Positions 33,741-64,000 of a DNA stretch of 64,000 nt are shown here, one piece after another. The notes under the pieces were generated by a model that had not been told where the DNA came from, ran no database searches, and saw nothing but the letters and a program-made list of their open reading frames with translations. Position numbers and translations under genes: made by a program. Within the stretch, counting starts at the first letter, position 1. Each line of letters begins with the position of its first letter. The stretch lies in assembly GCA_028698875.1 (NCBI GenBank), contig JAQVVR010000006.1, positions 46,924-110,923 of the forward strand, given 5' to 3'. Source of the stretch: Candidatus Izemoplasmatales bacterium. GTDB lineage: Bacteria > Bacillota_I > Bacilli_A > Izemoplasmatales > Hujiaoplasmataceae.

Positions 33741-33809
33741 TGAGATGGTATTATTCAGGGGAATATGTTATAATTTATAAAGACAATCGCCCGAAAAGAG
33801 GTGCCAAAA

Positions 33810-39689: not shown

Positions 39690-39694
39690 ATAAC

Positions 39695-39918
39695 CAAATC
39701 AATGAACGGAGAAGTACGATGCTCGTTTGATCATAGCGAATGGGGAGATGGTGAAAGCCCCACGATCAGATCCATCGAAATAACACCGGGAGAGACGGAA
39801 GAACAAAGTAGAACCGTCCGCACATCTGCGTTAAAGATGCTGAGTGCCGAATATTATTTCGGAACAAAGGTGGTACCACGGTTGATAATCGTCCTTTTTT
39901 TGGACGATTTTTTATTTT
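39695..39918 (+). promoter_or_regulatory. T-box riboswitch leader, probable Asn (AAC) specificity, upstream of alkD-like + asnS
   Basis: Conserved T-box sequence AACAAAGGTGGTACCACGG (39862-39880) lies immediately 5' of terminator hairpin AATCGTCC-TTTTTTT-GGACGATT plus T-run (39885-39914). Upstream are GGTGAAAGC and GGGAGAG stem-I-like elements and a candidate specifier AAC in ...GAAATAACACC... ORF-track item 39678-39920 is this leader, not a gene. Confidence 0.65.
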
Positions 39919-39932
39919 AAGGAGGTGGAATA

Positions 39933-40634
39933 ATGTTGATTCTTGAAGAACTAAAAGCAGATCAACGGGTCAATAATGCAAACCCGCTGTCAAAATTTCA
40001 CAAAACCGGAGTTGGTGAATATCAACATGGGGATGTATTTTGGGATATTCCGATACCAAAGATTCGCCGCGTTGTCAAAAATCATTATCAGGATGTTTCG
40101 TATGACGATATCGATATTTTGCTGGCCTCGAATGTTCATGAAGTCCGTCTTTGTGGATTATTGATACTTACGGAACTGATGAAAACCATTAGCGACTCGC
40201 AAAAACCAAGACTAGTAAATTATTATCTTGAACACCTAGATCAGATTAATGGGTGGGATCTGGTTGATCTCTCGGCACCCGCCATCTTAGGGACATATAT
40301 TTATGAAGTCAAAGACAGCGGTATTCTTGATGTGCTTGCCAAGTCGGATAATCTTTGGCATCGACGCATAGCCATAGTTGCAACTTTGAAATTAATTAAA
40401 CATAATGAACTTAATCCAACGTATCGAATTGTTAAAAAACTCATTAATGATCAAGAAGATTTGATTCACAAGGCATGTGGATGGATGCTTCGGGAGGCCG
40501 GCAAGCAAAATCGACCACGATTGGATCACTTTTTACGAGACAATTATTCCCAACTCTCACGCACCACATTGAGATATGCAATCGAAAAACACGATGAATC
40601 AGAACGGAAAGCATTTTTGAAAGGGAACTTTTAG
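39933..40634 (+). CDS. DNA alkylation repair enzyme, AlkD/AlkC-like HEAT-repeat DNA glycosylase family
   Basis: About 230-aa all-helical protein with pfam DNA_alkylation-like spacing (WDLVDLSAP...[11 protein letters not shown]...ACGWMLRE). RBS AAGGAGGTGG. Confidence 0.7.
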
Positions 40635-40645
40635 GAGGGGTAAAG

Positions 40646-42034
40646 ATGGATATTACCATTAAAGAATTATATCAAAAATATTTAGAATCAGCGGGGAAAC
40701 ACGTTACAATCTCTGGCTGGATTCGTAACAGTCGAGCCCAAAAAGAGTTTGGATTTATTGATTTAAACGACGGATCGTTTTTTGAAACGATTCAAGTTGT
40801 ATATGAAGAAAACGAGGTATCAAATTTTAAGGACATTCAGAAATTTAGGGTTGGTTCCTCAATTACTGTCGAAGGAATTCTTTCCGTCACGCCCAACATG
40901 AAACAGCCATTTGAAATTAAAGCGACAATGATTACTTTGGTGGGAGACAGTCCAGAGAATTATCCGATTCAACCGAAACGACATTCTCGTGAATTTTTAA
41001 GAGAGAATGCGCATTTGCGGATGCGGACGAACCTATTTTCGGCTGTTTTTCGCGTCAGATCGGAAGTGTCTTATGCCATTCATAGTTTTTTCCATGACCG
41101 GAACTTTGTTTATGTACACACGCCAATTGTTACCGGCTCAGATGCAGAAGGCGCAGGCGAAATGTTTAAAGTGACTACGCTTGATATTGAGAAAATACTA
41201 CAAAGCGATGCCAAAGCCATTGATTATTCGAAAGACTTTTTTGGTAAGGCGACTAATCTAACGGTGTCGGGACAACTTCAAGTAGAAACATATGCGATGG
41301 CATTTCGCAATGTGTATACTTTTGGACCGACTTTTCGAGCGGAAAATTCAAATACGCAGCGCCATGCATCGGAATTTTGGATGATTGAGCCCGAAATCGC
41401 TTTTGCTGATTTACATGATGACATGCGGTTAGCTGAAGAAATGGTCAAATATGTTATTAGGTATATATTGGAACATTGTTCCAAAGAAGTCGATTTTTTC
41501 AATGATTTTGTCGAGAAAGGGCTGCGCTCTAAACTTGAGAAAGTAGTCAATTCTGATTTTCAAGTTGTCACTCATCATGATGCGATATCTATTTTGAAGG
41601 CAGCCAAGGAACAATTTGAAAATCAACCCGAATACGGAGAAGATTTAGCTACTGAACACGAAAAATACCTAACTAAATATTTCGATGGACCGGTGTTCGT
41701 CATAGACTGGCCAAAAGAAATTAAAGCATTTTATATGCGCGTTAACCCCGATGGAAAAACTGTCGCGGCGATGGATTTGCTTGTCCCCGGATCAGGTGAA
41801 TTGATTGGCGGATCACAACGCGAAGAACGACTTGATGTTTTAGAGAAAAAGATGCAAAACTTACATATCGACAAAAGTAATTATTGGTGGTATCTTGATT
41901 TGCGCAAGTATGGCGGATGCCCACATGCCGGATTCGGATTAGGACTGGAACGAATGATTATGTATGTTACTGGTATTGATAATATCCGTGATGTGATTCC
42001 GTTCCCAAGAACACCAAAGAATTGCGAGTTTTAA
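40646..42034 (+). CDS. asnS: Asparagine--tRNA ligase
   Basis: N-terminal OB anticodon-binding domain plus class IIb core ([38 protein letters not shown]). Confidence 0.9.
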
Positions 42035-42105: not shown

Positions 42106-43548
42106 GTGAAGAAAGCTATGCTTCTTATGATTGGATTGGCATTAAGTATGATATTTATTGGCTGTACTCCTGGAGAACAAACAACGGCATCGGAATTGTC
42201 GGTTACGGAACGGGTTCAGGCGCTTCAAAACCCATATATGATTATGCTATTTATCACCGAAGACGCGACAACATCAGTTGGGATTAATTTTGAGTTGCCG
42301 ACAAATTCGGATGGTTACGTCGAGTATCGCTTATTAGGAAATTTAGAATTTGTTCGTCTCTCGGCAACGAAAAAGGCGACAACTGTTGGATCAAATTTGG
42401 TATATTTGTATGAAAAAAAGATATCTAATTTACTGCCCGATTCAATATATGAATATCGCATCGGTGGGGGAAATGATTTATATGAAAGCAACACTTATCA
42501 GTTTAAAACCGCCCAAACCAATGAAACGGAAACGGTTTTTATGTTGTTATCAGATCCACAAGGTAGCGACTCAATTGATTATATGACGTATGCAAACAAC
42601 GTGATAAGAATCAGCGAACAAGCACAAAAAAATGTCGATTTTGTGATGTTTACCGGTGACGTTGTCAACGATGATGATAGCCGGTCCCAGTGGAACCTGT
42701 TGTTCAAATACTCCTCAATATTTTCGTATAATATTCCGGTTGCCGCAACAGCAGGAAACCACGAAACGGGATCAATATTTGAGTCACAAGTTCAAAACAT
42801 CGAACTTGATGGTTACTACAATTTGCCAAATAACGGACCGACTTATAACGATTTCGATGAATTGGAAAATGACCAGCGCACCTCAACGTTTGATCAAGGT
42901 AAAACGTATAGTTTTGATTATGGATACGGTCATTTTGTCGCCATTGATACCGAATTGTTTTACGGCGACACGGGTATTAATGGTGTTGTTGATGAAGAAA
43001 ATATTGCTCTATTCAATTCTTGGTTGGTCGCTGATTTAGGGGCAAATGCAGACAAATGGATTATTGTTTATCTCCATCGCGGACCATACGCATTAACTTA
43101 TGATTCGTATAATGTCCGGCAACGGTTGACACCAATTTTTGATCAATATGGCGTTGATTTGGTCATCTCTGGACACGATCATCGTTACTCACGAGCGGTT
43201 ATCTCACAAGGGACAATGATCGATTTTACAACTGCGGACACCTATTTAAATGGTAATATTAGTTTGATATTGGATGGCGATTTCACAAGAAACTTTAATG
43301 ATTATAGTAGCGGGCTTGGAGTCACGTACTTTGTCGGAAACTCTTCGGGGACAAAGTTTTATGGTGACACAGCCGAGCCGGAAATGGCTGTCACTTATTT
43401 ATACTATGGTGAAAACGCAGTGATCCCGTTTTTTACAGTCACGGAAACCGCGATTGAAGTGGTTTCTTATCTGATTGAAAAATCAGGAAACACGGCGATT
43501 TTCCCGGATTCAATATCAATACTTGAATCGTTCATAATACGCAAATAA
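42106..43548 (+). CDS. Purple-acid-phosphatase-like metallophosphoesterase lipoprotein (extracellular phosphoesterase)
   Basis: Lipobox FIGC|TP. A PAP N-terminal Fn3-like region (YEYRIGGGN...YQFKTA). Calcineurin-like motifs GDVVND, AGNHE and GHDHRY. GTG start behind AAGGGGGAA. Confidence 0.75.
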   Translation: MKKAMLLMIGLALSMIFIGCTPGEQTTASELSVTERVQALQNPYMIMLFITEDATTSVGINFELPTNSDGYVEYRLLGNLEFVRLSATKKATTVGSNLVYLYEKKISNLLPDSIYEYRIGGGNDLYESNTYQFKTAQTNETETVFMLLSDPQGSDSIDYMTYANNVIRISEQAQKNVDFVMFTGDVVNDDDSRSQWNLLFKYSSIFSYNIPVAATAGNHETGSIFESQVQNIELDGYYNLPNNGPTYNDFDELENDQRTSTFDQGKTYSFDYGYGHFVAIDTELFYGDTGINGVVDEENIALFNSWLVADLGANADKWIIVYLHRGPYALTYDSYNVRQRLTPIFDQYGVDLVISGHDHRYSRAVISQGTMIDFTTADTYLNGNISLILDGDFTRNFNDYSSGLGVTYFVGNSSGTKFYGDTAEPEMAVTYLYYGENAVIPFFTVTETAIEVVSYLIEKSGNTAIFPDSISILESFIIRK

Positions 43549-52603: not shown

Positions 52604-52628
52604 CGTGATCGAATAGGAGATGTGTAAA

Positions 52629-53708
52629 ATGGAAATAAAAATGGCCAATTTGACCAAGATTTTTATTAGTAAAGACAAAAAAGAAGTTCATGCTGTGGAT
52701 CATGTCGACTTGGTAATCCCCTCAGGAAAATTGATTGGACTGCTCGGACCTTCTGGCTGTGGCAAATCCACGACTTTGTATTTGATCGCTGGATTATTGA
52801 GGCAAACCGAAGGTGAAATCTATTTCGGAGAAGAAGAAATGTCAGAAACGCCGCCGGAAAAACGCGGTATAGGACTTGTCTTCCAAAATTATGCACTTTA
52901 TCCGCATATGACAGTCCGAGAAAATATTCTTTTTCCGTTAGAAAATTTAAAAGTGGAAAAAGAAGAGGCCAAAAAACGAACCTTTGAAATGGCAAAGTTA
53001 GTCGGCCTTGAAGAAATGCTTGACCGTAAGCCAAAAGAATTATCTGGCGGCCAGCAACAACGAGTTGCAATTGCTAGAGCTCTTGTTAAAACGCCACGAG
53101 TATTATTGTTAGATGAACCACTCTCTAATCTTGATGCACGGTTGCGATTACAAACTCGCGAAGAAATCAAACGAATTCAACGAGAAACAAAAATTACCAC
53201 GGTATTTGTGACGCACGATCAGGAAGAAGCTATGTCGATTTCTGATGAAATCGTCGTCATGAAGGACGGTATAATTCAACAAATGGGTGAGCCACAAGAG
53301 GTTTATGATAAGCCAACCAATTTATTTGTTGCCAAATTTCTTGGAAACCCACAAATCAATGTTTTTGATGGCGAAATCAAAAACAAAGAAATATTGATTG
53401 AAAACATGTTCGTTGGCAAGCGAGATTTACCGGACCAAAAAGTCTTTATCGGTGTTAGACCAGAAGGATTTATCATTGATCAAGAAAATAAATCATCATT
53501 TCATTTTAAAGTGGACCTTGTCGAGACTATCGGGCGCGATACGACTTTGATTTTTGATATGCAAGATGACTCCATAAATATCTTGGATAAAAAAACATTC
53601 AAAGCCATCATTGATGCTGGATTCCGGATTAAAGCTGGCGATGTCGTTCATTTCAATATCAAGCCAGAAAAGATGCATTTATTTGATATAAACGGAACCA
53701 TTTTGTAG
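52629..53708 (+). CDS. ABC transporter ATP-binding protein, CUT1 (MalK/UgpC-like) family with C-terminal regulatory (TOBE-like) domain
   Basis: Walker A GPSGCGKST, signature LSGGQQQRVA, Walker B LLLDEPLS, H-loop VTHD. AGGAGA RBS precedes the ATG at 52629. Confidence 0.9.
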   Translation: MEIKMANLTKIFISKDKKEVHAVDHVDLVIPSGKLIGLLGPSGCGKSTTLYLIAGLLRQTEGEIYFGEEEMSETPPEKRGIGLVFQNYALYPHMTVRENILFPLENLKVEKEEAKKRTFEMAKLVGLEEMLDRKPKELSGGQQQRVAIARALVKTPRVLLLDEPLSNLDARLRLQTREEIKRIQRETKITTVFVTHDQEEAMSISDEIVVMKDGIIQQMGEPQEVYDKPTNLFVAKFLGNPQINVFDGEIKNKEILIENMFVGKRDLPDQKVFIGVRPEGFIIDQENKSSFHFKVDLVETIGRDTTLIFDMQDDSINILDKKTFKAIIDAGFRIKAGDVVHFNIKPEKMHLFDINGTIL

Positions 53709-53717
53709 GCCATTATT

Positions 53718-54623
53718 ATGGAGAAAAAAAATAATCTAAGGGCATGGCTCTATCTGGCACCATTGCTCATTCTAATGGCGGTCTTCACTTTTTATCCGTT
53801 AATTAATGCTTTTATAGTCTCTTCATACAAAGGATATCTGCCTTTGAGCGGAACGGCCGATGAAATTGATTTCTTTTATAATTTTGGTGTAATTTTAAAA
53901 AATCCACTCTTCAAAAAGGCTGTTATTAATACCTTTATCATTGCTGGAGTATCGGTACCGGTTTCAATTCTATTATCATTACTTATTGCTGTATCACTTA
54001 AATCAATTCCAAAATTAAAAGGGTTCTTTCAAACGATCTATTTTTTGCCATATGTGACTAATACGATCGCTATCGGTATGGCATTTGCCTTTATGTTTCA
54101 CGAGGATTATGGGGTTATTAACCTGATTCTTGGCTGGTTTGGGATAAGTCCAGTCAACTGGCTGGGCGGGACAGCATCGTATGCCGCTCAAATGATTGCC
54201 TTACTAATCCTGACGATTTGGAATGGATTGGCTTTTAAAATCTTAGTATTCACAAGCGGACTAGAAAATATTGATAAGCAGTATTACGATGCGGCAAAAA
54301 TCGATTCGGCATCGAAATGGACGGTTTTCAAACGCATTACCGTTCCTTTGTTATCTCCGCTTATTCTTTACATCTCAATCACATCAGTTATCGGAGCCTT
54401 AAAAGCATATAACTCCGTTGTTGGCTTATTCGGCGATGTAAAATTGGGAGCACAAAACAACTCAATGATTACCATTGTTGCTTTTGTATATCAATATAAA
54501 GACGGATACACCGATAAAGGCTATATCAGTTACGCCGCCGCTGCATCAATTATCCTTTTCTTCATAACGGCTGTCATTTCCATTCTTCAAACAGTCGTAA
54601 GTAAGAAAAGGGTCCACTATTAG
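53718..54623 (+). CDS. ABC transporter permease (UgpA/MalF-like, 6 TM)
   Basis: EAA-loop region (YYDAAKIDSASKWTVFKRITVPL) and 6 TM. Confidence 0.85.
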   Translation: MEKKNNLRAWLYLAPLLILMAVFTFYPLINAFIVSSYKGYLPLSGTADEIDFFYNFGVILKNPLFKKAVINTFIIAGVSVPVSILLSLLIAVSLKSIPKLKGFFQTIYFLPYVTNTIAIGMAFAFMFHEDYGVINLILGWFGISPVNWLGGTASYAAQMIALLILTIWNGLAFKILVFTSGLENIDKQYYDAAKIDSASKWTVFKRITVPLLSPLILYISITSVIGALKAYNSVVGLFGDVKLGAQNNSMITIVAFVYQYKDGYTDKGYISYAAAASIILFFITAVISILQTVVSKKRVHY

Positions 54624-54632
54624 GGGGTGATG

Positions 54633-55568
54633 ACAATGGCAGACATTTATGTATCAAATGTAAAAGCGTATAAAGCCAAAAAAATTGCTTCCAATGTTTT
54701 ACTCTACGCTTTTTTAGTAATAGTAGCGCTTACTATTTTACTCCCTTTCTATTGGATGATTCTTTCATCATTGAAATCAACAGTTCAAATTGAACAGGTT
54801 CCACCGATTCTGCTAATGGCACCATCGGATTGGAAAATTACAAATTACACTGATTTGTTTGTTTTGGTTCAATCGGGACAACGAGCCGGTGAACCATTGT
54901 TTCCTTTCTTCACCTATATGAAAAACACCGTTGTGGTTTCAATTATCACAACAATTGGAACGACAATCACAACGGTTTTGGCAGCTTTCGCTTTTGCAAG
55001 ATTGAACTTCAAAGGGCGGGACATATTATTTGCAATTCTACTAGGCACGATGATGGTTCCGGGAGAGATTTTCATTCTTACAAACTTTGTGACAGTTTAT
55101 CGGCTTGGGTGGTACAGTATTTCAAACCAAACATATTTAGACGTGCTGTTGGCAATGACCATCCCCTTTATGACCAGCGTCTTTTATATTTTCTATTTGC
55201 GGCAGACCTTTAAACAAATTCCCAACGAATTATATTATGCCGCTAAAGTCGATGGAACAACAGACTTTAAATATCTTTTAAAAGTCATGATTCCAATTGC
55301 TTTACCAACCATTATCACGATTATCATTTTAAATTCCATGGGCGCGTGGAGCGCATATATCTGGCCGGCATTGATTTCTTGTAAAGACGAATACCGTCTT
55401 GTCAGCAACGGGTTGCGCGGCGCCTTCACCGACACTTCAACGGGGCGGACTGACTATGGTCAACAAATGGCCGCTTCGGTTCTGGTCACGCTGCCACTTC
55501 TTATTTTATTTTTTGCGTTTAGAAAACAGATTATGCGCGGGGTATCCCGTAGCGGCATCAAGGGATAA
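54633..55568 (+). CDS. ABC transporter permease (UgpE/MalG-like, 6 TM)
   Basis: EAA-like loop (YYAAKVDGTTDFKYLLKVMIPIALP). Start chosen at the second ATG after GGGGGTG. Confidence 0.85.
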   Translation, partial: TMADIYVSNVKAYKAKKIASNVLLYAFLVIVALTILLPFYWMILSSLKSTVQIEQVPPILLMAPSDWKITNYTDLFVLVQSGQRAGEPLFPFFTYMKNTVVVSIITTIGTTITTVLAAFAFARLNFKGRDILFAILLGTMMVPGEIFILTNFVTVYRLGWYSISNQTYLDVLLAMTIPFMTSVFYIFYLRQTFKQIPNELYYAAKVDGTTDFKYLLKVMIPIALPTIITIIILNSMGAWSAYIWPALISCKDEYRLVSNGLRGAFTDTSTGRTDYGQQMAASVLVTLPLLILFFAFRKQIMRGVSRSGIKG

Positions 55569-55620: not shown

Positions 55621-57249
55621 ATGAAAAAATTGCTTTTGAGTTTTGTCACGTTGTTTTTAACATTTGGTATTCTTGGATGCGTCACGGTCGGGACGACCGG
55701 AGAGTATGTTTATGTACCTGAAGTTATGCTTACTGAACTGCCTACCGAAGATGTTGAAGTTACTTTTTGGCATATTTATGGGGAAGGAAAAACCGCTGTT
55801 TTGGATACATTGATTGCTGAGTTTGAAGCGATGTTTCCTAATGTTACTATTACGGGCACTTCCCAAAGCGACTATACAACATTAAGATCTAAAATCAATG
55901 TTGGCGTTTCTGTTGGCGAAGTCCCAACGATGGCGCTTGGTTATCCCGATCATTATGCGGGTTATGTCAACGCTCACGCGGCCGTTGGACTAGATCCTTA
56001 TATTAACAACACCATTGAATACACCGTGGATAATCCTTTGTCTTCAATTAATGGACAAACGATTACAACATCAATTGACTTAACGGACTTTGTTCCATCA
56101 TATCTTGCCGAAAACAATCAATATGTTGGCGGATATTATTTCTCGGTCCCATTCTCTAAGTCAACTGAAGTAATGGCCGTTAACCGTACGGTATTGAAAC
56201 AACACATTACTGAAATTCGGGCTTTAGGAATTACGATTTCTGATAACGGCTTTTTATCACACACGGTCCCGCTAACATACGCACAATTGGAAGCTTTGAC
56301 CGCAATTCTTGTCAACACTAGCGGAACCGATGTGGCTGCGTACAAATGCCAATTCTTGATGAATTATGATTCCAATGCCAATTTGTTCATCAATATGAGC
56401 CGCCAATGGAACGCGCCTTATACTAACTCGGCTGGTGATATTTTGATTGACAACGATATCAGCAGAAACATGCTAAAGTACATCAACGGTTTGTTCGGAA
56501 CCAACACATTAGTTTTACCAACCGAATGGACCCAATCATATGGATCAACCAATTTCATATATGGCGATGTTTGTATGACCGTTGGATCATCTGCTGGTTA
56601 TAGCTACAACGTTCCTACTTCAGAATATAAAGCCAACCTATTAAAATTTGGAATTTTTGATGTTGACTTTGTTCAAGTTCCACAAATGGTTTTAACCGAT
56701 GCAACAGACGTTGCTGTTACCGTTGACAATGCGGCTGTAACTGTAAATGGCGACTTATCAGCTGTTCAACAAGGACCAAACATCGGAATTTTTGCGAATG
56801 CAACGAGGGCCGAAAAACTGTATGCTTGGCTTTTCATAAAATATTTAATCGAAGCTGACAACACGGCATGGTGGGCTATGAGTACTGGTTATCTGCCGGC
56901 AAGACTATCAGCATTTACATCGGATGTTCCTATCGCAATGACAGGTACATACTCAGTAACTTATTCTAATTTCTTGCAAATCGCTCAAGACTATTGGGCT
57001 GCTGATGGCGACGTTGATTGGCTTACTACCGATGAAAGATGGGATTATCTATACTCATCAATGGCGGCTAATATTGCCAAAAATCAAAACGATTTCTATG
57101 AATATGATCCCGCTTTCTCTGCTGGAGACAATAGTGCAGGATCAGCTACGGCTCGTGAAGAAGCAGGAAACTGTTTAGATGATATTTATAATGGTACGTT
57201 TTCACCAACTGATTCTTTAAATAATATGAAGAGTCTATTAACCTGGTAG
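55621..57249 (+). CDS. ABC transporter substrate-binding lipoprotein (solute-binding family 1, unusually long at 542 aa)
   Basis: Lipobox ILGC|VT, Trp/Tyr-rich periplasmic-binding-protein-like sequence. Directly follows the permeases. Confidence 0.8.
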   Translation: MKKLLLSFVTLFLTFGILGCVTVGTTGEYVYVPEVMLTELPTEDVEVTFWHIYGEGKTAVLDTLIAEFEAMFPNVTITGTSQSDYTTLRSKINVGVSVGEVPTMALGYPDHYAGYVNAHAAVGLDPYINNTIEYTVDNPLSSINGQTITTSIDLTDFVPSYLAENNQYVGGYYFSVPFSKSTEVMAVNRTVLKQHITEIRALGITISDNGFLSHTVPLTYAQLEALTAILVNTSGTDVAAYKCQFLMNYDSNANLFINMSRQWNAPYTNSAGDILIDNDISRNMLKYINGLFGTNTLVLPTEWTQSYGSTNFIYGDVCMTVGSSAGYSYNVPTSEYKANLLKFGIFDVDFVQVPQMVLTDATDVAVTVDNAAVTVNGDLSAVQQGPNIGIFANATRAEKLYAWLFIKYLIEADNTAWWAMSTGYLPARLSAFTSDVPIAMTGTYSVTYSNFLQIAQDYWAADGDVDWLTTDERWDYLYSSMAANIAKNQNDFYEYDPAFSAGDNSAGSATAREEAGNCLDDIYNGTFSPTDSLNNMKSLLTW

Positions 57250-57271: not shown

Positions 57272-58711
57272 ATGCTAAAAAAAATCTTTAGTGCAATGCT
57301 TGGCTTCTTGTTGGTTTTTGTGCTTATCGGCTGTCAGCCAACAGAGGTGGCCTTGCCAGATTTAACCGGGAAGTCACGTGCGCAAATTACGGAAACGCTC
57401 GAAGGACTTAATTTATCAATCAAATATTACTTTGATCTTTCAGTAATTTACGACGAAGAATCCGATTATGATAAATTTGTCCGTTATGGAAAAGACGAAA
57501 ATTCAGTGCAATTGGCTGTTGGTGATATTGTCGCTACCAAAACGGAAATCAAAGTATATACTACGCCACTTAATATAACAATTAACTATCTTTATTCGTT
57601 AAGCGATGCACTATCTTTACACGAAAGTGATTATACAGGGAAAGAATTCATCGCTGATGGTATCGGTGAAGTCACAATTTCCAAACTGGTTGATGGTGAT
57701 ACCACTTTTTTCCAAAGCGACGGGCAATCATATTCGGTCCGCTATCTAGGTATTGACACGCCAGAATCAACCGCTTTGTATCAAGCTTGGGGTAAAGCGG
57801 CCGCCACATATACCGCTGAAAAATTACAATCAGCCGAGAAAATCGTGTTGGAAGCCGAAGGCGATCGTCAAGACGGTAATGACCGTTATCTCGCTTGGGT
57901 TTGGTACCTTCCTGAGGGCGGCGATAAGTTCTTGTTATTGAATTTAGAACTTGTCGAATTAGCTTATTCAAAAAACAAAGTCTCAACTGGTAGTGTTTAT
58001 TCAGATGTTTTAACTTTGGCTGACTGGAATGCTTCCGCAACTAAACGGCGAGTGTGGGGAGAAATTGATCCTAATTACGATTATAGTAAAGAGGGCACCC
58101 AGATGACGATTGCGTTTTTAATGGAAAACTTCGCCGATTATATGGGCTTAAAGGTTGCCATTTCGGGAATTGTCACGGCCAAAATTGGCAATAGTGTTTA
58201 TCTTCAAGATGAATCAGGAGCGGGAATTTACATGTATGCCGGATATACCTCTTCATCCCAACTGCAGATAGGGGCGCATGTGGCAATTGATGGATTAACG
58301 CCAACAGTTTATAGTGGGAGTCCGCAACTAACCAATTTCAACCGGCTTAACCTATCTTTGGTGACCGAATCTTTGATAATTACACCGGAAGTAATCACTT
58401 ACGACGATTTTATTTTCACTAATATTGGCAAATATGTGACGATGAACCAGTTAACCGTCACTGGTGTCAATACTGCGAGAACAAGCATCTATGTTACCGA
58501 TATCGAAGACCATGAGTTTGTTATTAGAATTGATGACAGCACTGGTTTTGATGCGGACGATTTAGGCGTTACCGTTGGTCAAGTGTTAACTGTTACTGGT
58601 CCTCTCGGATATTATGACTATGATTACAATAATGTATTTGAGGGATATAATCACGCACCAAGTAAATTTCAGTTAATGCTCACAGCTAGCGACAACATAA
58701 TTATTGAGTAA
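57272..58711 (+). CDS. Thermonuclease (staphylococcal-nuclease-like, SNase) lipoprotein with C-terminal OB-like domain
   Basis: Lipobox LIGC|QP. SNase core VRYLGIDTPE...DRYLAWVWY retaining Ca-binding and catalytic Arg/Glu positions. The C-terminal VYLQDESGAGIYMY...GAHVAIDG module is shared with the next gene. Confidence 0.8.
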   Translation: MLKKIFSAMLGFLLVFVLIGCQPTEVALPDLTGKSRAQITETLEGLNLSIKYYFDLSVIYDEESDYDKFVRYGKDENSVQLAVGDIVATKTEIKVYTTPLNITINYLYSLSDALSLHESDYTGKEFIADGIGEVTISKLVDGDTTFFQSDGQSYSVRYLGIDTPESTALYQAWGKAAATYTAEKLQSAEKIVLEAEGDRQDGNDRYLAWVWYLPEGGDKFLLLNLELVELAYSKNKVSTGSVYSDVLTLADWNASATKRRVWGEIDPNYDYSKEGTQMTIAFLMENFADYMGLKVAISGIVTAKIGNSVYLQDESGAGIYMYAGYTSSSQLQIGAHVAIDGLTPTVYSGSPQLTNFNRLNLSLVTESLIITPEVITYDDFIFTNIGKYVTMNQLTVTGVNTARTSIYVTDIEDHEFVIRIDDSTGFDADDLGVTVGQVLTVTGPLGYYDYDYNNVFEGYNHAPSKFQLMLTASDNIIIE

Positions 58712-58737: not shown

Positions 58738-61700
58738 ATGAAACTGATTTTAAAGAAATTTGCTTTACTGGGTCTTCTTTTAACAGCAATCTTTACGGTC
58801 GTAGCTTGTACGCCCGAAGATACATCCGAACAGATGATCTTACTTAACAATGCGTCGGCAGCTATCATTATTGATGGTCAAGACAACATTCAAGGTAATT
58901 TCACTCTACCTGGAACTGTCGGAGGTGCAACAATAACATGGGTGGCGGCAAATCCGACCATTATTGTTATCCCTGCAACCACAAACGCTAACGGATTCTA
59001 TGAAGTCGTTGTCAATCGGCCACAAATAGCTGATGGCGGCGTCGACACATCTGTCGTTTTGACCGCAACACTAACTTATGACGAAGTTTCAATTACCGCC
59101 ACAAGAACAGTCCGAGTCAAAGCTCAAGAACCATCAGAAACTTACACCTCTTTTGCTCTTTTATATGCTGGAGCAACATCTGGTGATACTGTTGAAGTCC
59201 AAGGAATCGTCTATGCAAAATATGCAGCGGGCTATTTCATTATGGATACAGCAGGAATCGGATTAGGTATTTTTACAACCACAGCCAACGCCGCTTTAGT
59301 CGACTATGGTGACATGGTTACGCTCACTGGTGAATATTCGTATTACAACTCATTATTCCAAGTCAAAAATCTTACTTCTCAAGTTATTGACAGCAGTGAT
59401 AATGACTATACAGTCACACCAACGGTTTTGACAGATCCTGCCGATTTGATTGACGTTGACTCAACTGTCAAAGCCAATCACGGCAAAATCTATACCATTA
59501 CTGTAACGCCAACATTGGTTGCATCGGGTGCTTATTTTAATCTTTATTTATACGATGGAACCACGATGATCGCTCGGGTTTATTATAATTCGACCGCCTC
59601 ATCATTAGCAGCATTAACGGAAATGGTAGGAAAACTTGTTACGATTGATGTTGTCTACTATTGTTGGTACAGTGGCAAAGAAGTCTTAGTTGCTTTCGAT
59701 GGCACAGCTGATGATATTCACGAAATCATTTTGACGGAAACGGAAAAACAGACAGCCGATATGAATAATATTTCGGTTATGTTAACCGCTTTGTCAGAAG
59801 GAACCGCAACCCTTCCAGCCGCAGGCGCATATGGATCAACGATTACATGGTCGGTTATTTCCGGGGGGGCAACAATTGCCGATGGAGTTGTCACATATCC
59901 CACTGTTGGTGCCGGTGCTGAGCCAGTTGATGTTGTGTTAGAAGCAACAATTTCCCGCACTGGTTTGACCGATGTGACCAAACAATTTACCATTGAAGTC
60001 AGTCCAATTGATCCAATTACCGTTGGAGCAGTTATGGATTTAATTCAAGCACTGGGAACCGCTTCAAACTCAATTAATGGCGAAGCTGTCTTGATGCAAG
60101 GTACAATCATCGGATTTAAATGGAAATATGAATTTGCTAAATATCAAGGTATGTACGTTACCGACGGAACCGATGTCGTCTTTGTATACATGGAATTTGA
60201 TATAGATGATTATGCTATTGGCGATGTCGTTATGCTTAACGGAACATACTGCACTTATTATTACTTGCCAGAATTCAAAGATGTTACTTTCCAAGCAAAA
60301 GTCGCAGATGCTACGGCAGACGAATTTACTCCACTTGAATTAACGATTGCTGAGATTTATGATTATACCAATATTACTACTCCATATTATAATCAACAAA
60401 TCACAGTAACAGGAACTTTAGTCATTGGAACAAAAGATTCTGAATCCTGGATTATTGATGGCGAAGGAAACAAACTTGTCTTCTCATATCTAGTTCCAAA
60501 CTATACAACAACTGATCTGTTGGATCTAAACGGTATGCAAGTTACCTTCACCGGATTCTTGAATGATTACCATTCAACATATGGGTGGAGAATCACTGGT
60601 GCTAACGCTGTTTTCGAGAATGCACCATTATCAGGACAAGAAGCTCTTGATGCTGATTATGCAAGTTTGTTGATTCCGCTAGAGGCTTTGTCGGAAACAA
60701 CGTATACACTCCCTGTTATCGGTGGATATGATACTGTTATTACCTGGGCGGTTATTTCTGGCGGCGCGACACTAAATGTTGCTGGAAACGTTGTAACTTA
60801 TCCGGCAGTTGCAGAAGGCGTAGATCCAGTTAATGTTGTTCTTGAAGCAACTTTGACATTAGGCGAACTGACACCGATGACAAAACAATTTACTGTAGTT
60901 GTCAGCCCAATTGTTACTATTACTGTTGGCGATGTTATCGATTTGGTTCACGAATTAGGAACAGCATCAAATAGCATTACTGGCGAAATCGTTATCGTTG
61001 AAGGCACCATTGTTGGGCTTAAATGGAAATCGGGCTTCACACAATATCAAGGCATTTATCTATCTGATGGAACCGATGTAATTTTTGTCTATTATGTATT
61101 CAATCCTGGCGATTTTGAAGTCGGTGATTTCATCAATGTGAGAGGTACATATTGCACGTATTATTACTTGCCGGAACTCTCCTCAGTTACTTTCATTGAG
61201 GTAGATGAAAGCGGTACACCAGCAACATATACCCCACAAGAATTGACAATTGAAGAAATTTACAATTACACTAATATTACTACCCCGTATTACAATCAAC
61301 AAATCACTGTTACCGGAACCTTAGTTATTGGTACCAGCGATTCAACTTCATGGATTATTGATGGAGACGGAAACAAACTTGTCTTCTCATATATCGAATC
61401 TGACTATACTACAACTGATTTGCTAGCTTTGAATGGTAAAGAAGTAATTGCCACATTCTTCCTAAATGATTTTCATTCCACACTGGGATGGAGAGTCACT
61501 GGTGATGGCGCAACATTTGTTAGAACACCAGAACAATTGATTATCGATGATATCGCCGAACTTCTTGCTTTAATCAATACTTCCGTTGTCGGCGGCGATA
61601 CACAATTGTTACCAACTGTTGGAACCAATGGCACGACTGTCATTTGGACCGAAGTTAGTGATTATGCTAATATCGCTGATGGCACGATTACCTATTCTGA

Positions 61701-63741
61701 AGTCGCTGAAAGCACCAATGTTGTCTTAACGGGTGAATTTGGCTTCTTAGTTGGTGGCGAAGCCGCAAGAACTTATCGGACTATCACCGTTGTCGTCTCC
61801 ACTTGGGAACAAAAATTAACTGCTGACTTAGCAGAAATCGTTGATCTTGAAGCGGATGAATTTGATGTTATCAATCTTCCAACCGAAGGTACCAATGGTT
61901 CAGCTATCACTTGGGCATTCACTGCCGAGACAGTCAATACCGACGCAACATTAGTTGACAACGTTTTGACTCTGAAGTACAAAGGTGAAGCCTATACCAT
62001 TCATCTGACAGCAACTCTGACAGTTAGTGTGTTAGATCCAGTTACCAAAGACATCGTTGTTAATGTTACGGCCTTAACATTGGTCTTTAACGACATCGCT
62101 GATGGTAATATGAAAACTGATGGCGTTTGGAATGTTCCGAACGGAACAGTAGTTACTTACCGTGGCGTTGTTACTGGATTCTATTATACAAGCGGAACCT
62201 TCATTCAGGATTCCAATGGCAACGGAATGTACTGCTATCATCTTTATAATGCTGAACTAGCAGTCGGCGATGAAATCATCGTTACCGGTACTCTCAAAGA
62301 ATACAATGGTGTTAGAGAACTTGATCCTGTAACCCTAGTTGGCGTCATTAGTTCAGAAAATGAACTATCATATATTACTATGACTCCAGCAGAAGTTGCG
62401 GCGATGGTTTCAACTTATTACGAATATCAAGGACAACTTACAACAGTTACCGGATTAATTGTTGATCACTATTCTGGAACCTATATTTATGTGGATTGGG
62501 CTACTGTTGGAGAAACCCCATATTATCTCTCCTTTAAGTTCCCGACATGGTGGACGGAAGTATATGAGGCTGGAGACACATTACCAGAACTATCGTTTGT
62601 CTTCTATAACATTTTTAATGTAACGACATACAATCTTTGGAACGTTACTTATCCAGCAATGACTGATGAACAAAAATTAGCGGTTGATGTGGATCAATTA
62701 CCGATTACATCAGTTGAAAATCCACTTGAATTGAGTGCTGATTATATTTTACCATTACCAAAATATTGCACATATGATACAATTTCCCCAGCAGTATCGG
62801 AAGGATTAGAAGTTTACGTTACTGGTTATGACACACTCACTCGTACCTTCTTTGTTACTCTTCCGGATGCAGCCGATTTCACAGGAGAGATTACAATTAC
62901 GGTCACTCTAAACGAAACGTTATCACAAGAAGTCATCATTTATGTTAAAATCAAAATGTTGACGGAACAACAAAAACTTGACGCTGCTTTAGCAAAACTT
63001 CCTAGCAATATGTCATTAACCTCTGGATACACACTATCTGCGTTAGATTACAGTGCTGTATACGGAACTGTTGATTACTCGGCAGGACTGGACACTTATT
63101 TATCTAACGTAGCGAACGCTTTCACAGTTCTATCTCGGCCTATAATTGGAGCTGCGGATGTAACAGGTACCATCACTGTTCATGCAACCCTTGGTGAGGC
63201 GACAGGAAGTGTCGTTATTAATGTAATTATTCGAGCATATGCAGCCGATTTAATCATTTCTGAATATATTGAAGGTTCTTCAAATAACAAAGCAATTGAA
63301 ATTTATAACGGAACTAACGCAACGATCATTCTTACAGGATATAAACTTGTTCTTTTCACAAATGGCAGTTCCACAGCAGGAAATACCTATAACTTTGCTG
63401 AAGGAACAACGTTAGCTCCAGGTGAATGCTTCGTTATTGCAAATTCAAGTGCAAATGCAACTATTCTTGCGGCTGCCGATGCTACTAGTACCGTATGTTA
63501 CTTTAATGGTGATGATGCTGTTGTCTTATATAATGGGGACACAGTAATTGACAGTTTTGGAGATGTTGGTTTTGACCCGGGAACTGAATGGGATGGCTCG
63601 ACAGCTGACAATACTCTTGTAAAAATTGGAATTGCATCTGATACAACAGTAGATGATGATTTTATACCTACCGCTTTATGGACGGTATATCCAGTTGATA
63701 CACTAACATATCTTGGTTGGCACGAAAATTATGCTTGGTAG
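58738..63741 (+). CDS. Giant surface lipoprotein (1667 aa): multiple Ig-like and OB-like repeat modules and a C-terminal lamin-tail domain (LTD)
   Basis: Lipobox VVAC|TP. At least 5 Ig-like units with G..ITW...ISGGA...VTYP...V.LTAT motifs. Four or more copies of the a-x-D-x-x-G-x-G-a-Y...GD.V.V.GT..EY.G..EL OB-like motif. An ~0.9-kb internal tandem duplication. C-terminal LTD signature ISEYIEGSSNNKAIEIYNGT...LTGYKL. Confidence 0.85.
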   Translation: MKLILKKFALLGLLLTAIFTVVACTPEDTSEQMILLNNASAAIIIDGQDNIQGNFTLPGTVGGATITWVAANPTIIVIPATTNANGFYEVVVNRPQIADGGVDTSVVLTATLTYDEVSITATRTVRVKAQEPSETYTSFALLYAGATSGDTVEVQGIVYAKYAAGYFIMDTAGIGLGIFTTTANAALVDYGDMVTLTGEYSYYNSLFQVKNLTSQVIDSSDNDYTVTPTVLTDPADLIDVDSTVKANHGKIYTITVTPTLVASGAYFNLYLYDGTTMIARVYYNSTASSLAALTEMVGKLVTIDVVYYCWYSGKEVLVAFDGTADDIHEIILTETEKQTADMNNISVMLTALSEGTATLPAAGAYGSTITWSVISGGATIADGVVTYPTVGAGAEPVDVVLEATISRTGLTDVTKQFTIEVSPIDPITVGAVMDLIQALGTASNSINGEAVLMQGTIIGFKWKYEFAKYQGMYVTDGTDVVFVYMEFDIDDYAIGDVVMLNGTYCTYYYLPEFKDVTFQAKVADATADEFTPLELTIAEIYDYTNITTPYYNQQITVTGTLVIGTKDSESWIIDGEGNKLVFSYLVPNYTTTDLLDLNGMQVTFTGFLNDYHSTYGWRITGANAVFENAPLSGQEALDADYASLLIPLEALSETTYTLPVIGGYDTVITWAVISGGATLNVAGNVVTYPAVAEGVDPVNVVLEATLTLGELTPMTKQFTVVVSPIVTITVGDVIDLVHELGTASNSITGEIVIVEGTIVGLKWKSGFTQYQGIYLSDGTDVIFVYYVFNPGDFEVGDFINVRGTYCTYYYLPELSSVTFIEVDESGTPATYTPQELTIEEIYNYTNITTPYYNQQITVTGTLVIGTSDSTSWIIDGDGNKLVFSYIESDYTTTDLLALNGKEVIATFFLNDFHSTLGWRVTGDGATFVRTPEQLIIDDIAELLALINTSVVGGDTQLLPTVGTNGTTVIWTEVSDYANIADGTITYSEVAESTNVVLTGEFGFLVGGEAARTYRTITVVVSTWEQKLTADLAEIVDLEADEFDVINLPTEGTNGSAITWAFTAETVNTDATLVDNVLTLKYKGEAYTIHLTATLTVSVLDPVTKDIVVNVTALTLVFNDIADGNMKTDGVWNVPNGTVVTYRGVVTGFYYTSGTFIQDSNGNGMYCYHLYNAELAVGDEIIVTGTLKEYNGVRELDPVTLVGVISSENELSYITMTPAEVAAMVSTYYEYQGQLTTVTGLIVDHYSGTYIYVDWATVGETPYYLSFKFPTWWTEVYEAGDTLPELSFVFYNIFNVTTYNLWNVTYPAMTDEQKLAVDVDQLPITSVENPLELSADYILPLPKYCTYDTISPAVSEGLEVYVTGYDTLTRTFFVTLPDAADFTGEITITVTLNETLSQEVIIYVKIKMLTEQQKLDAALAKLPSNMSLTSGYTLSALDYSAVYGTVDYSAGLDTYLSNVANAFTVLSRPIIGAADVTGTITVHATLGEATGSVVINVIIRAYAADLIISEYIEGSSNNKAIEIYNGTNATIILTGYKLVLFTNGSSTAGNTYNFAEGTTLAPGECFVIANSSANATILAAADATSTVCYFNGDDAVVLYNGDTVIDSFGDVGFDPGTEWDGSTADNTLVKIGIASDTTVDDDFIPTALWTVYPVDTLTYLGWHENYAW

Positions 63742-63773: not shown

Positions 63774-63803
63774 GCAAAAGGCACGGGAAACTGTGCCTTT
63801 TCA
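63774..63803 (+). terminator. Rho-independent terminator after the giant lipoprotein gene
   Basis: AAAGGCACGGGAAACTGTGCCTTTTC. Confidence 0.75.
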
Positions 63804-63962: not shown

Positions 63963-64000
63963 ATGAGAATAAAGAAATTATTAGTTTTAGCTTTGAGTTT
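63963..64000 (+). CDS. 5' end of a further secreted/lipoprotein gene (signal peptide MRIKKLLVLALS..., truncated by window)
   Basis: ATG at 63963 preceded by an AT-rich promoter-like region; only 12 codons are visible. Confidence 0.3.
   Translation, partial: MRIKKLLVLALS

Follow-up and report, generated by a model that had tools for sequence, protein, structure and literature searches.

The last gene of a six-gene operon in the window (the 64,000-nt stretch of DNA analyzed here) encodes a 1,667-aa predicted lipoprotein of a wall-less Izemoplasmatales bacterium, which is probably a non-catalytic, lipid-anchored, polyvalent scaffold that captures DNA at the cell surface. After its lipobox, the protein carries seven Ig-like domains (five clear aBig_2 domains and two divergent ones), four double-OB modules of two consecutive OB-fold barrels each (eight barrels in total), and a C-terminal lamin tail domain (LTD). 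The position of its gene, last in an operon with a nuclease and an ABC importer, makes it most likely that the protein keeps extracellular DNA bound to the cell surface while it is digested; that the protein is surface-exposed, binds nucleic acids, and works together with the nuclease and transporter is inferred. A 0.9-kb repeat inside the gene goes back, judging from sequence comparison, to an ancient duplication, specific to the lineage, of a single Ig+OB+OB module; it is stable and under purifying selection, adds a binding module, and is not a device for variation.

A giant lipoprotein gene closes a nuclease and importer operon

The genes of the operon are separated by short gaps and followed by a terminal terminator:

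52620-53708, + strand: UgpC-like ATPase of an ABC importer (52620-55568)
53718-54623 and 54627-55568, + strand: two UgpA/UgpE-like permeases of the same importer
55621-57249, + strand: solute-binding lipoprotein, 542 aa (SBP_bac_8; weak match to the mycoplasma P68 lipoprotein)
57272-58711, + strand: SNase lipoprotein with its own C-terminal double-OB (DUF5689-like) module (Pfam SNase, E 1.6e-7)
58738-63741, + strand: giant lipoprotein gene, ATG start, 1,667 aa
63776-63801, either strand: strong bidirectional intrinsic terminator closing the operon (11-pair stem, then a T run)

The transporter is of the sugar/glycerol-3-phosphate (CUT1) type, its ATPase and permeases scoring best against the UgpC/UgpA/UgpE, MalK/F/G, and GlcV/T/U models. 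The SNase neighbor matches the NCBIfam thermonuclease NucI model, comes just under the cut-off for DUF5689 (E 7e-5), and is matched by our custom HMM for the OBa barrel at aa 279-358 (E 1.5e-12) and 394-450. Two antisense ORFs, at 59718-59993 within the giant gene and at 57672-58040 within the SNase gene, were treated as spurious.

A ribosome binding site (AGGAGG) lies 7 nt upstream of the giant gene, whose predicted signal peptide terminates in VVAC at Cys24, a lipobox judged by eye against the pattern [LVI][ASTVI][GAS]C. A cysteine occupies the equivalent place (...[GA]C) in the full-length homologues P0004-P0013. The description of the product as a giant lipoprotein in a first-pass annotation is thus borne out by its length, by the lipobox cysteine, and by the presence of that cysteine in all full-length homologues.

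The gene order from the importer to the giant protein is the same in three other loci (L001, L005, and L006). The window stops 260 nt past the giant gene, and downstream genes were seen in L001, where the giant protein is 43% identical and is followed by another aBig_2 protein, a protein pairing an LTD with a metallo-beta-lactamase fold, two of the DHH/DHHA1 type, and a Na/Pi cotransporter.

Domain architecture and predicted folds

The giant lipoprotein is divided into the following segments, all on the + strand:

58738-58809, + strand: signal peptide and lipobox MKLILKKFALLGLLLTAIFTVVAC with Cys24 (from the translation, with the ribosome binding site upstream and the cysteine found in homologues)
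58849-59724, + strand: module 1 (type A), aBig_2 Ig aa 38-130, OBa ~131-231, OBb 233-329
59731-60627, + strand: repeat copy 1, module 2 (type B, 'FKWK'), Ig 340-424, OBa 425-535, OBb 536-628
60628-61530, + strand: repeat copy 2, module 3 (type B), Ig 639-725, OBa 726-836, OBb 837-929
61546-62076, + strand: two more aBig_2 Ig domains, aa 937-1023 and 1029-1113 (custom Ig HMM, E 2e-17 and 9e-19)
62077-62712, + strand: module 4 (type C), double OB, OBa 1114-1217 and a divergent second barrel 1218-1325
62728-63240, + strand: two divergent Ig-like domains, aa 1331-1408 and 1415-1501 (custom Ig HMM, E 1e-4 and 4e-6)
63241-63738, + strand: C-terminal LTD (Pfam LTD aa 1502-1608) and tail (PF00932, 68.1 bits, E 1e-18)

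Two Pfam families score above their gathering thresholds, aBig_2 (PF20578; 95 bits over four stretches, threshold 27 bits) and LTD (PF00932; threshold 34.3 bits, with profile positions 5-106 of 109 covered), and custom HMMs delimit seven Ig, four OBa, and three OBb domains. Module 1, recognized by the custom Ig, OBa, and OBb HMMs at E 1e-19, 6e-30, and 8e-33, is 25-28% identical to modules 2 and 3; together with a partial copy at aa 1029-1325, the segment at aa 38-329 represents an older, weaker copy of the Ig+OB+OB supermodule (25-33% identity). The divergent Ig-like pair shows internal similarity (aa 1331-1406 against 1426-1499), and the structure model of the second member, aa 1415-1501, is of low confidence.

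An AlphaFold model of one repeat unit (pLDDT 92) consists of an Ig domain and two barrels, both predicted by the model to be five-stranded OB barrels. The modeled barrels match OB folds that bind single-stranded DNA or RNA (Ten1, Teb1, RPA14/32/70, Asn/Lys-tRNA synthetase, and MCM10-ssDNA) as well as 3f1z, a 'nucleic acid-binding lipoprotein', while for the Ig domain the closest structural counterpart is found in a GH43 arabinanase. The last region without an assignment, aa 1218-1325, was modeled as an all-beta barrel. These models and profile matches agree with the modular Ig-like/OB-like/LTD organization that the first-pass annotation had proposed.

Sequence searches were less informative for the barrels. 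The sole match of the isolated OB domains to Pfam was a sub-threshold one for OBa4 (E 0.018, 15 bits vs 27); among homologues, P0006 and P0010 pass the threshold of a curated OB family (tRNA_anti-codon PF01336 or DUF5689). For the double-OB profile, searching sequences of solved structures in the PDB gave only marginal STN1/RPA32 OB matches; the LTD had no match there. Neither PF03372 nor any other Pfam nuclease family was found in the giant lipoprotein at E <= 0.1.

Homology to nuclease-associated OB and LTD regions

Both the OB and LTD parts have local matches in extracellular DNases. An OB module is matched by positions 2-90 of the NCBIfam ExeM/NucH DNase model, and aa 1502-1663, including the LTD, match positions 23-175 of the ExeM model (E 4e-28), with whole-protein scores (97.8 and 46.7 bits) that stay far under the respective ExeM/NucH cut-offs (NF033680/NF033681; 1300 and 300 bits). 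The OBa HMM also matches three proteins combining LTD with Endonuclease_1 (P0012, P0014, and P0015) and one combining LTD with EEP (P0016). In a sample of 36 double-OB relatives, seven carry the Pfam tRNA_anti-codon OB domain, three DUF5689, one SNase, and one a 5'-nucleotidase with Metallophos (5_nucleotid_C + Metallophos). Most close double-OB relatives have no catalytic domain, so the evidence from fusions comes from a minority of the family.

The family itself is large: the double-OB profile retrieves 8,172 cluster representatives at E <= 1e-3, and the number and order of modules vary among distant homologues. A profile built from the type-B alignment found only three distant loci in species-representative genomes, a set that does not include the window's own genome.

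An ancient tandem module duplication

Residues 332-~630 and 631-~931 are colinear, exactly tandem copies with a period of 301 aa (903 nt). Self-comparison of the DNA by blastn gives one off-diagonal alignment, 59842-60601 against 60739-61504, with 68.7% identity over 771 nt (E 9.5e-83); an ungapped 285-nt core (60324-60608 against 61227-61511, spacing 903) is 75% identical. At the protein level, segment-versus-masked-self searches give 57-66% identity per 150-aa segment (E down to 6e-65), and the copies are 60% identical over 308 aligned positions with four gap columns. Tandem Repeats Finder reported only a 12-nt micro-repeat, having missed the 0.9-kb repeat because its longest period is 500. 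The first-pass annotation was right about the coordinates and period of a colinear ~0.9-kb duplication, which gives the off-diagonal line of a self dot-plot, and both peptides it quoted occur in the translation; it had described the duplication as near-tandem, and 'near' can be dropped.

Several lines of evidence indicate that the duplication is old. In a codon alignment the copies are 64.5% identical, with third positions at 46%; synonymous sites are near saturation (pS 0.66, dS about 1.6), dN/dS is about 0.2, and the longest exact run common to both copies is 24 nt. Identical residues use the same codon in 94 of 181 cases, compared with 77 expected from codon usage alone. Windowed same-codon use gave no convincing sign of recent gene conversion between the copies, with only modest rises to 0.64 at aa 545-584 and 0.67 at aa 485-524 (0.52 overall, 0.43 expected). 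In a neighbor-joining tree copy 2 is the sister of copy 1 (bootstrap 190/200). The closest full-length homologue, P0004 (1,670 aa), has a type-D module where copy 2 stands; copy 2 is thus a replacement for a different module type and not an extra module.

Both copies are free of indels in two independent strain-level assemblies (L005 and L006; 99.74% and 99.77% identical), a comparison that comprises two extra strains whose contigs both stop inside the gene. Three other metagenomic contigs break off within the giant gene, and one strain has a cluster of 10 SNPs at 62092-62240. A scan of one metagenome recovered the known contig and one 82%-identical relative, on a contig ending at window position 59826, before the repeat. 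We rejected the repeat as the cause of the contig breaks because no exact run common to the copies exceeds 24 nt; a more likely, though unproven, cause is strain heterogeneity.

Proposed DNA capture and alternative explanations

In the mechanism we propose, the OB arrays, and possibly the LTD, would capture extracellular DNA or RNA polymers polyvalently and hold them at the membrane, where the neighboring SNase lipoprotein would cut them; the binding protein and ABC transporter would import the products, and DHH/NrnA-type phosphoesterases in the cytoplasm, whose genes lie directly downstream in the orthologous locus, would complete the degradation. The module duplication took the place of a different type of module and has since been under purifying selection, adding one binding module.

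The main caveat for DNA capture is extreme acidity: the protein has a net charge of -146 and a pI of about 4.05, and each OB domain falls at pI 4.0-4.4, values that argue against simple electrostatic DNA binding. With such acidity, the predicted binding would need aromatic stacking or Ca2+/Mg2+ bridges; the OB domains contain 12-19% F/W/Y. The SNase neighbor and the binding protein are just as acidic, so the acidity may reflect the surface proteome of the organism and not the choice of ligand.

This acidity would be unremarkable in a glycan binder and is awkward in a DNA binder, and one alternative is that the protein binds poly- or oligosaccharides at the surface for a sugar ABC importer, with the OB barrels acting as carbohydrate-binding modules and the nuclease as an unrelated passenger. 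The sugar-type model matches of the importer, its SBP_bac_8 binding protein, and the GH43 arabinanase match of the Ig domain all fit such a role, and aBig_2 domains are common in glycosidases; a glycosidase or CBM was found in none of the 36 sampled double-OB relatives. We regard glycan binding as improbable. A mainly structural coat, in which a long acidic Ig-rich fiber forms a protective or spacing layer around the wall-less cell and possibly organizes surface nucleases through LTD contacts with protein or membrane, without binding DNA, seems unlikely, although less so than glycan binding: it leaves unexplained the eight OB barrels under purifying selection, their homology to the essential substrate-binding region of ExeM, and the conserved operon linkage.

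The first-pass annotation had proposed that slipped-strand or recombinational events at the repeat vary the length of a surface antigen or adhesin. A size-variable antigen or adhesin whose 0.9-kb repeat gains and loses length through slipped-strand mispairing or homologous recombination, like the variable lipoproteins of mycoplasmas, would suit a large lipoprotein with a tandem intragenic repeat in a mollicute-like organism; module number and order do differ among distant homologues, and the three contigs ending in the gene and the 10-SNP cluster are compatible with some population heterogeneity. Set against this, the copies are only 64-69% identical in DNA, share no long exact run, are near saturation at synonymous sites, and show a low dN/dS; comparison among strains finds both copies gap-free in L005 and L006; and what is repeated is a whole module of three domains, not a short stretch of low complexity. 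The relatives of the organism are free-living sediment and digester bacteria, and the operon context is one of nutrient acquisition, pointing to nucleic acid scavenging and not to adhesion. We therefore consider length variation of an antigen very improbable.

Comparison with known systems

In the DNA-degradation loci described in Izemoplasmatales, nucleases, ABC transporters, and phosphate transporters occur with a large OB/LTD protein, which the authors proposed keeps DNA near the cell (Wasmund et al. 2021, PMC8289736). By its gene content, the locus in the window matches these in bringing together a predicted secreted nuclease, an ABC transporter, and a large OB/LTD protein. It comes from the same order of bacteria, and its orthologue adds phosphoesterases and a phosphate transporter. 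The two large proteins share YhcR-like OB folds, an LTD, and the proposed role of holding polymeric DNA close to the cell; by its description, however, the published protein has 1,049 aa and an endonuclease I domain, whereas the protein in the window has 1,667 aa, no recognizable catalytic domain, four double-OB modules, seven Ig domains, and a C-terminal LTD. In a cultured relative that also lacks a wall, DNA/RNA raises expression of a similar locus up to about 27-fold (PMC10470597).

Shewanella ExeM depends on a two-OB region for its activity and reaches full activity only with its LTD (PMC6085458). The protein in the window resembles ExeM/NucH in its LTD and YhcR-like OB region, but it has no EEP nuclease domain, carries its LTD last (the order is reversed) and its OB module four times, and is anchored by a lipid and not by a C-terminal hydrophobic or GlyGly-CTERM segment. 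In mycoplasmas, genes for SNase lipoproteins share a transcript with those of an ABC importer and a binding lipoprotein (mhp379, MAG_5040/P80; PMC3585158), an arrangement that likewise places an SNase lipoprotein beside a UgpCAE-like importer and a large binding lipoprotein; there, the nuclease is upstream of the transporter and a giant OB/LTD protein is not reported.

YhcR of Bacillus subtilis is a surface-anchored OB-fold + SNase + 5'-nucleotidase protein. It shares with our protein the surface anchoring and the association of tRNA_anti/YhcR-type OB folds with nucleic acid-degrading domains, but it is a sortase-anchored enzyme, whereas the protein in the window is lipid-anchored and has no catalytic domain. 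SusE/F-type proteins and cellulosomal scaffoldins may be functional analogues, in that each would place a polyvalent, non-catalytic, Ig-spaced binding array beside a hydrolase and an importer, encoded together in a locus for substrate utilization; the folds, ligands, and taxa are unrelated.

Implications

In sediments, extracellular DNA is a major source of phosphorus, nitrogen, and carbon, and members of Izemoplasmatales are seen as specialists in degrading it. The OB/LTD lipoprotein is a concrete candidate for keeping a large DNA polymer on a wall-less cell during digestion, and its conspicuous 0.9-kb repeat is an old module duplication and replacement, not a contingency locus. The double-OB family is large and uncharacterized. 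More tentatively, non-catalytic 'DNA scaffoldins' could form a large class with this protein as its prototype: lipid-anchored, polyvalent double-OB (+ LTD) arrays that would take polymeric extracellular DNA from the surroundings and present it to surface nucleases and an importer. If so, the operon would be the nucleic acid counterpart of polysaccharide-utilization loci.

An operon ending in a giant multidomain lipoprotein

The giant gene (58738..63741, + strand; ATG start with AGGAGG 7 nt 5' of it; 1,667 residues) is the last of a six-gene operon with gaps of 3-52 nt, lying downstream of YbaB and RecR and followed by a bidirectional terminator with an 11-bp stem (63776-63801). The preceding genes are:

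52620-53708: UgpC-like ATPase
53718-54623 and 54627-55568: UgpA-like and UgpE-like permeases
55621-57249: SBP_bac_8 lipoprotein, 542 aa, weak match to the mycoplasma P68 lipoprotein family
57272-58711: SNase lipoprotein, 479 aa, staphylococcal-nuclease domain and C-terminal DUF5689-like region

Pfam recognized aBig_2 (95 bits, four stretches) and a C-terminal lamin tail domain (LTD; aa 1502-1608, 68 bits) in the giant protein, and no other family at E <= 0.1. Custom HMMs, seeded on the repeat unit and iterated over homologues, delimited Ig domains and two OB barrels, OBa and OBb, and together with the Pfam matches bear out the Ig-like/OB-like/LTD architecture read from the sequence by the first-pass annotation. 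The OBa and OBb HMMs cross-match weakly, as expected of related barrels. The domains are:

aa 1-24: signal peptide and lipobox (…VVAC)
aa 38-130, ~131-231, 233-329: module 1 (Ig, OBa, OBb)
aa 340-424, 425-535, 536-628: module 2 (Ig, OBa, OBb)
aa 639-725, 726-836, 837-929: module 3 (Ig, OBa, OBb)
aa 937-1023, 1029-1113: two Ig domains
aa 1114-1217, 1218-1325: module 4 (OBa, divergent second barrel)
aa 1331-1408, 1415-1501: two divergent Ig-like domains
aa 1502-1667: LTD and tail

In the SNase lipoprotein, the nuclease domain is flanked by an N-terminal region and by a C-terminal region that the OBa HMM identifies as the same double-OB module (E 1.5e-12); the counterpart of the N-terminal region in L001, the orthologous locus, gives a weak PASTA match (E 8.5e-4). 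Gene order in L001 is identical to that of the operon; its giant gene is followed directly by another aBig_2 lipoprotein (1,154 aa), an aBig_2, LTD and metallo-beta-lactamase-fold protein (781 aa), and then two DHH/DHHA1 phosphoesterases and a Na/Pi cotransporter. The last 260 nt of the window lie beyond the giant gene; in them, after the terminator, a new signal-peptide ORF starts at 63963 (MRIKKLLVLALS…; GAGG upstream), occupies the position of the 1,154-aa lipoprotein and is cut at 64000.

Elsewhere in the window, a 480-aa protein (42106-43548) with purple-acid-phosphatase N-terminal and Metallophos domains could be another, putative phosphate-scavenging enzyme. A T-box leader (Rfam RF00230, 106.9 bits, 39693-39899) lies upstream of ORF 39933-40634 and a class II (D/K/N) aminoacyl-tRNA synthetase (40646-42034), and a 786-aa ORF (33801-36161) has no Pfam match at E <= 1e-5.

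The duplication is exactly tandem, old and stable

The first-pass annotation described a near-tandem intragenic duplication with a period of about 900 nt, quoting two peptides that are both present in the translation. Comparing the gene's DNA with itself yields just one off-diagonal alignment (59842-60601 vs 60739-61504; 771 nt aligned, 68.7% identity, E 9.5e-83), and a repeat finder places an ungapped core (60324-60608 / 61227-61511; 285 nt, 75% identical) at a spacing of 903. In the protein, aa 332-630 are colinear with 631-931 (per-segment identity 57-66%, E down to 6e-65), and the copies, modules 2 and 3, align at 60% identity over 308 positions with just four gap columns. The duplication and its period thus stand, but the copies are exactly tandem, 301 aa apart, and not merely near-tandem. 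TRF did not report the 0.9-kb repeat because it covered periods only up to 500.

The same annotation took the repeat as a substrate for slipped-strand or recombinational length variation of a surface antigen or adhesin. In codon alignment the copies are 64.5% identical (73%, 75% and 46% at codon positions 1, 2 and 3), with pS 0.66 (dS about 1.6, near saturation), dN 0.32 and dN/dS about 0.2; identical amino acids share the same codon at 94 of 181 sites, where the gene's codon usage alone predicts 77. These values mark an old duplication of which purifying selection has kept both copies. The longest in-register exact run that the copies share is 24 nt. For slippage such a repeat is a very poor substrate, and for homologous recombination it is marginal at most. 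Two further assemblies from the same species-level population, L005 (JGI sample 3300014204; 99.74% identical to the window) and L006 (GCA_041652035.1, labelled 'Candidatus Izemoplasmatales bacterium'; 99.77%), traverse both copies with zero gaps; copy number does not differ between these strains. Contradicted by both the divergence of the copies and the strain comparison, a variable antigen or adhesin is highly improbable.

Three independent metagenomic contigs end within the giant gene, at window 59826 (L008, from an 82%-identical relative), 61556 (L006) and 62265 (L005). Ten of the 32 differences between L005 and the window are crowded into the final 150 nt of the L005 contig, within OBa4 (SNP cluster at 62092-62240), and 8 of 15 within the giant gene are non-synonymous. 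The contig ends and SNP cluster suggest strain-level heterogeneity or a recombination boundary at ~61.5-62.3 kb, not in the repeat itself.

Module turnover in the family

Among full-length homologues P0004 (1,670 aa, 43% identity) is the closest, and it aligns colinearly with the giant protein over most of its length at 40-66% identity, the clearest exception being aa ~650-1050 (20-36%); nearer the C-terminus identity also declines, reaching 12-32% across the LTD region. In a neighbor-joining tree of the 'FKWK'-type (type B) units of all homologues, the window copies are sisters (bootstrap 190/200), and their mutual identity of 61% slightly exceeds their 51-57% identity with the orthologous P0004 and P0003 units.

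Module order in the window protein and its homologues, from clustering of OBa domains
Window protein: A-B-B-C
P0004: A-B-D-C
P0003: A-D-B-B
P0006: A-D-B
P0008: A-G-C
P0009: A-C

In the window lineage, then, a B copy has replaced a type-D module, leaving total length unchanged. Change in the family as a whole proceeds slowly, through duplication, loss and swapping of modules, as in ordinary domain shuffling and not by a contingency mechanism. Exchange seems to have affected the terminal LTD too, since the C-terminal regions of P0004 and the window protein are just about 20% identical. One LTD subtype, with …IIIYEVYGGGGNTG…, ends P0004 (L001 8531-13543) and P0006; another, with …LIISEYIEGSSNNKAIEIYN…, is found in the window protein (63241-63738), P0005, P0007, P0012 and P0013.

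A candidate nucleic-acid-capturing scaffold

Profile comparison shows the OB module to be a homologue of the part of secreted nucleases that binds substrate. Among NCBIfam models, ExeM/NucH DNase aligns with aa 1142-1217 and ExeM with the LTD region, both scoring far below family cut-off, and the OBa HMM matches LTD proteins carrying Endonuclease_1 (P0012, P0014, P0015) or EEP (P0016). A double-OB profile found 8,172 cluster representatives among 1.84 billion at E <= 1e-3, mostly large proteins with 2-13 module copies. In 36 sampled top matches we found aBig_2 (30/36), LTD (10/36), a Pfam nucleic-acid-binding OB family (7/36), DUF5689 (3/36), SNase (1/36) and 5'-nucleotidase with Metallophos (1/36), and no glycosidase or CBM (0/36). 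Shewanella ExeM is inactive without its two-OB region and depends on its LTD for full in-vitro activity (PMC6085458).

We lean toward the giant protein being a non-catalytic, lipid-anchored, polyvalent nucleic-acid-capturing scaffold serving the neighbouring SNase lipoprotein and importer. It would offer captured extracellular DNA/RNA to the nuclease, whose products would feed the ABC importer. In mycoplasmas, SNase lipoproteins are transcribed together with an importer of this type and a binding lipoprotein (PMC3585158), and Izemoplasmatales 'DNA-degradation loci' combine nucleases, ABC transporters and phosphate transporters (Wasmund et al., PMC8289736). The same study hypothesised that a large OB/endonuclease-I/LTD protein keeps polymeric DNA near the cell; the idea is the same, but the window protein has no catalytic domain. 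In the cultured, wall-less Hujiaoplasma nucleasis, a possibly orthologous locus with a comparable set of genes responds to DNA/RNA with an induction of up to about 27-fold (PMC10470597).

A sugar-binding role, for which the CUT1-type transporter and an Ig domain of glycosidase-associated kind could speak, is quite unlikely given the linkage to a nuclease gene and the domain-fusion data. A purely structural coat or organiser, possible but rather unlikely, would leave eight conserved OB barrels without explanation. The strongest counter-evidence to nucleic-acid capture comes from the protein's charge. In its mature form 53 K+R stand against 199 D+E (net -146, pI about 4.05), and each OB domain has a pI of 4.0-4.4, with 12-19% aromatic content. 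Any binding would have to go through divalent-cation bridges or aromatic stacking. Both the SNase lipoprotein, which must bind DNA, and the binding lipoprotein are as acidic as the giant protein, so acidity may be a general trait of this organism's surface proteins; the low pI may reflect cation-mediated binding or habitat adaptation. The operon's three surface lipoproteins are strongly acidic (pI 4.05, 4.34 and 4.19), which is uncommon among proteins with an expected role in DNA handling.

Earlier publications already contain the domains, this type of locus and even the notion of DNA tethering, and the conspicuous duplication is an ordinary, ancient module duplication/replacement. The window protein stands apart in having no catalytic domain, in its four double-OB modules interspersed with Ig spacers, and in belonging to a large, uncharacterised family known at NCBI simply as 'immunoglobulin-like domain-containing protein'.
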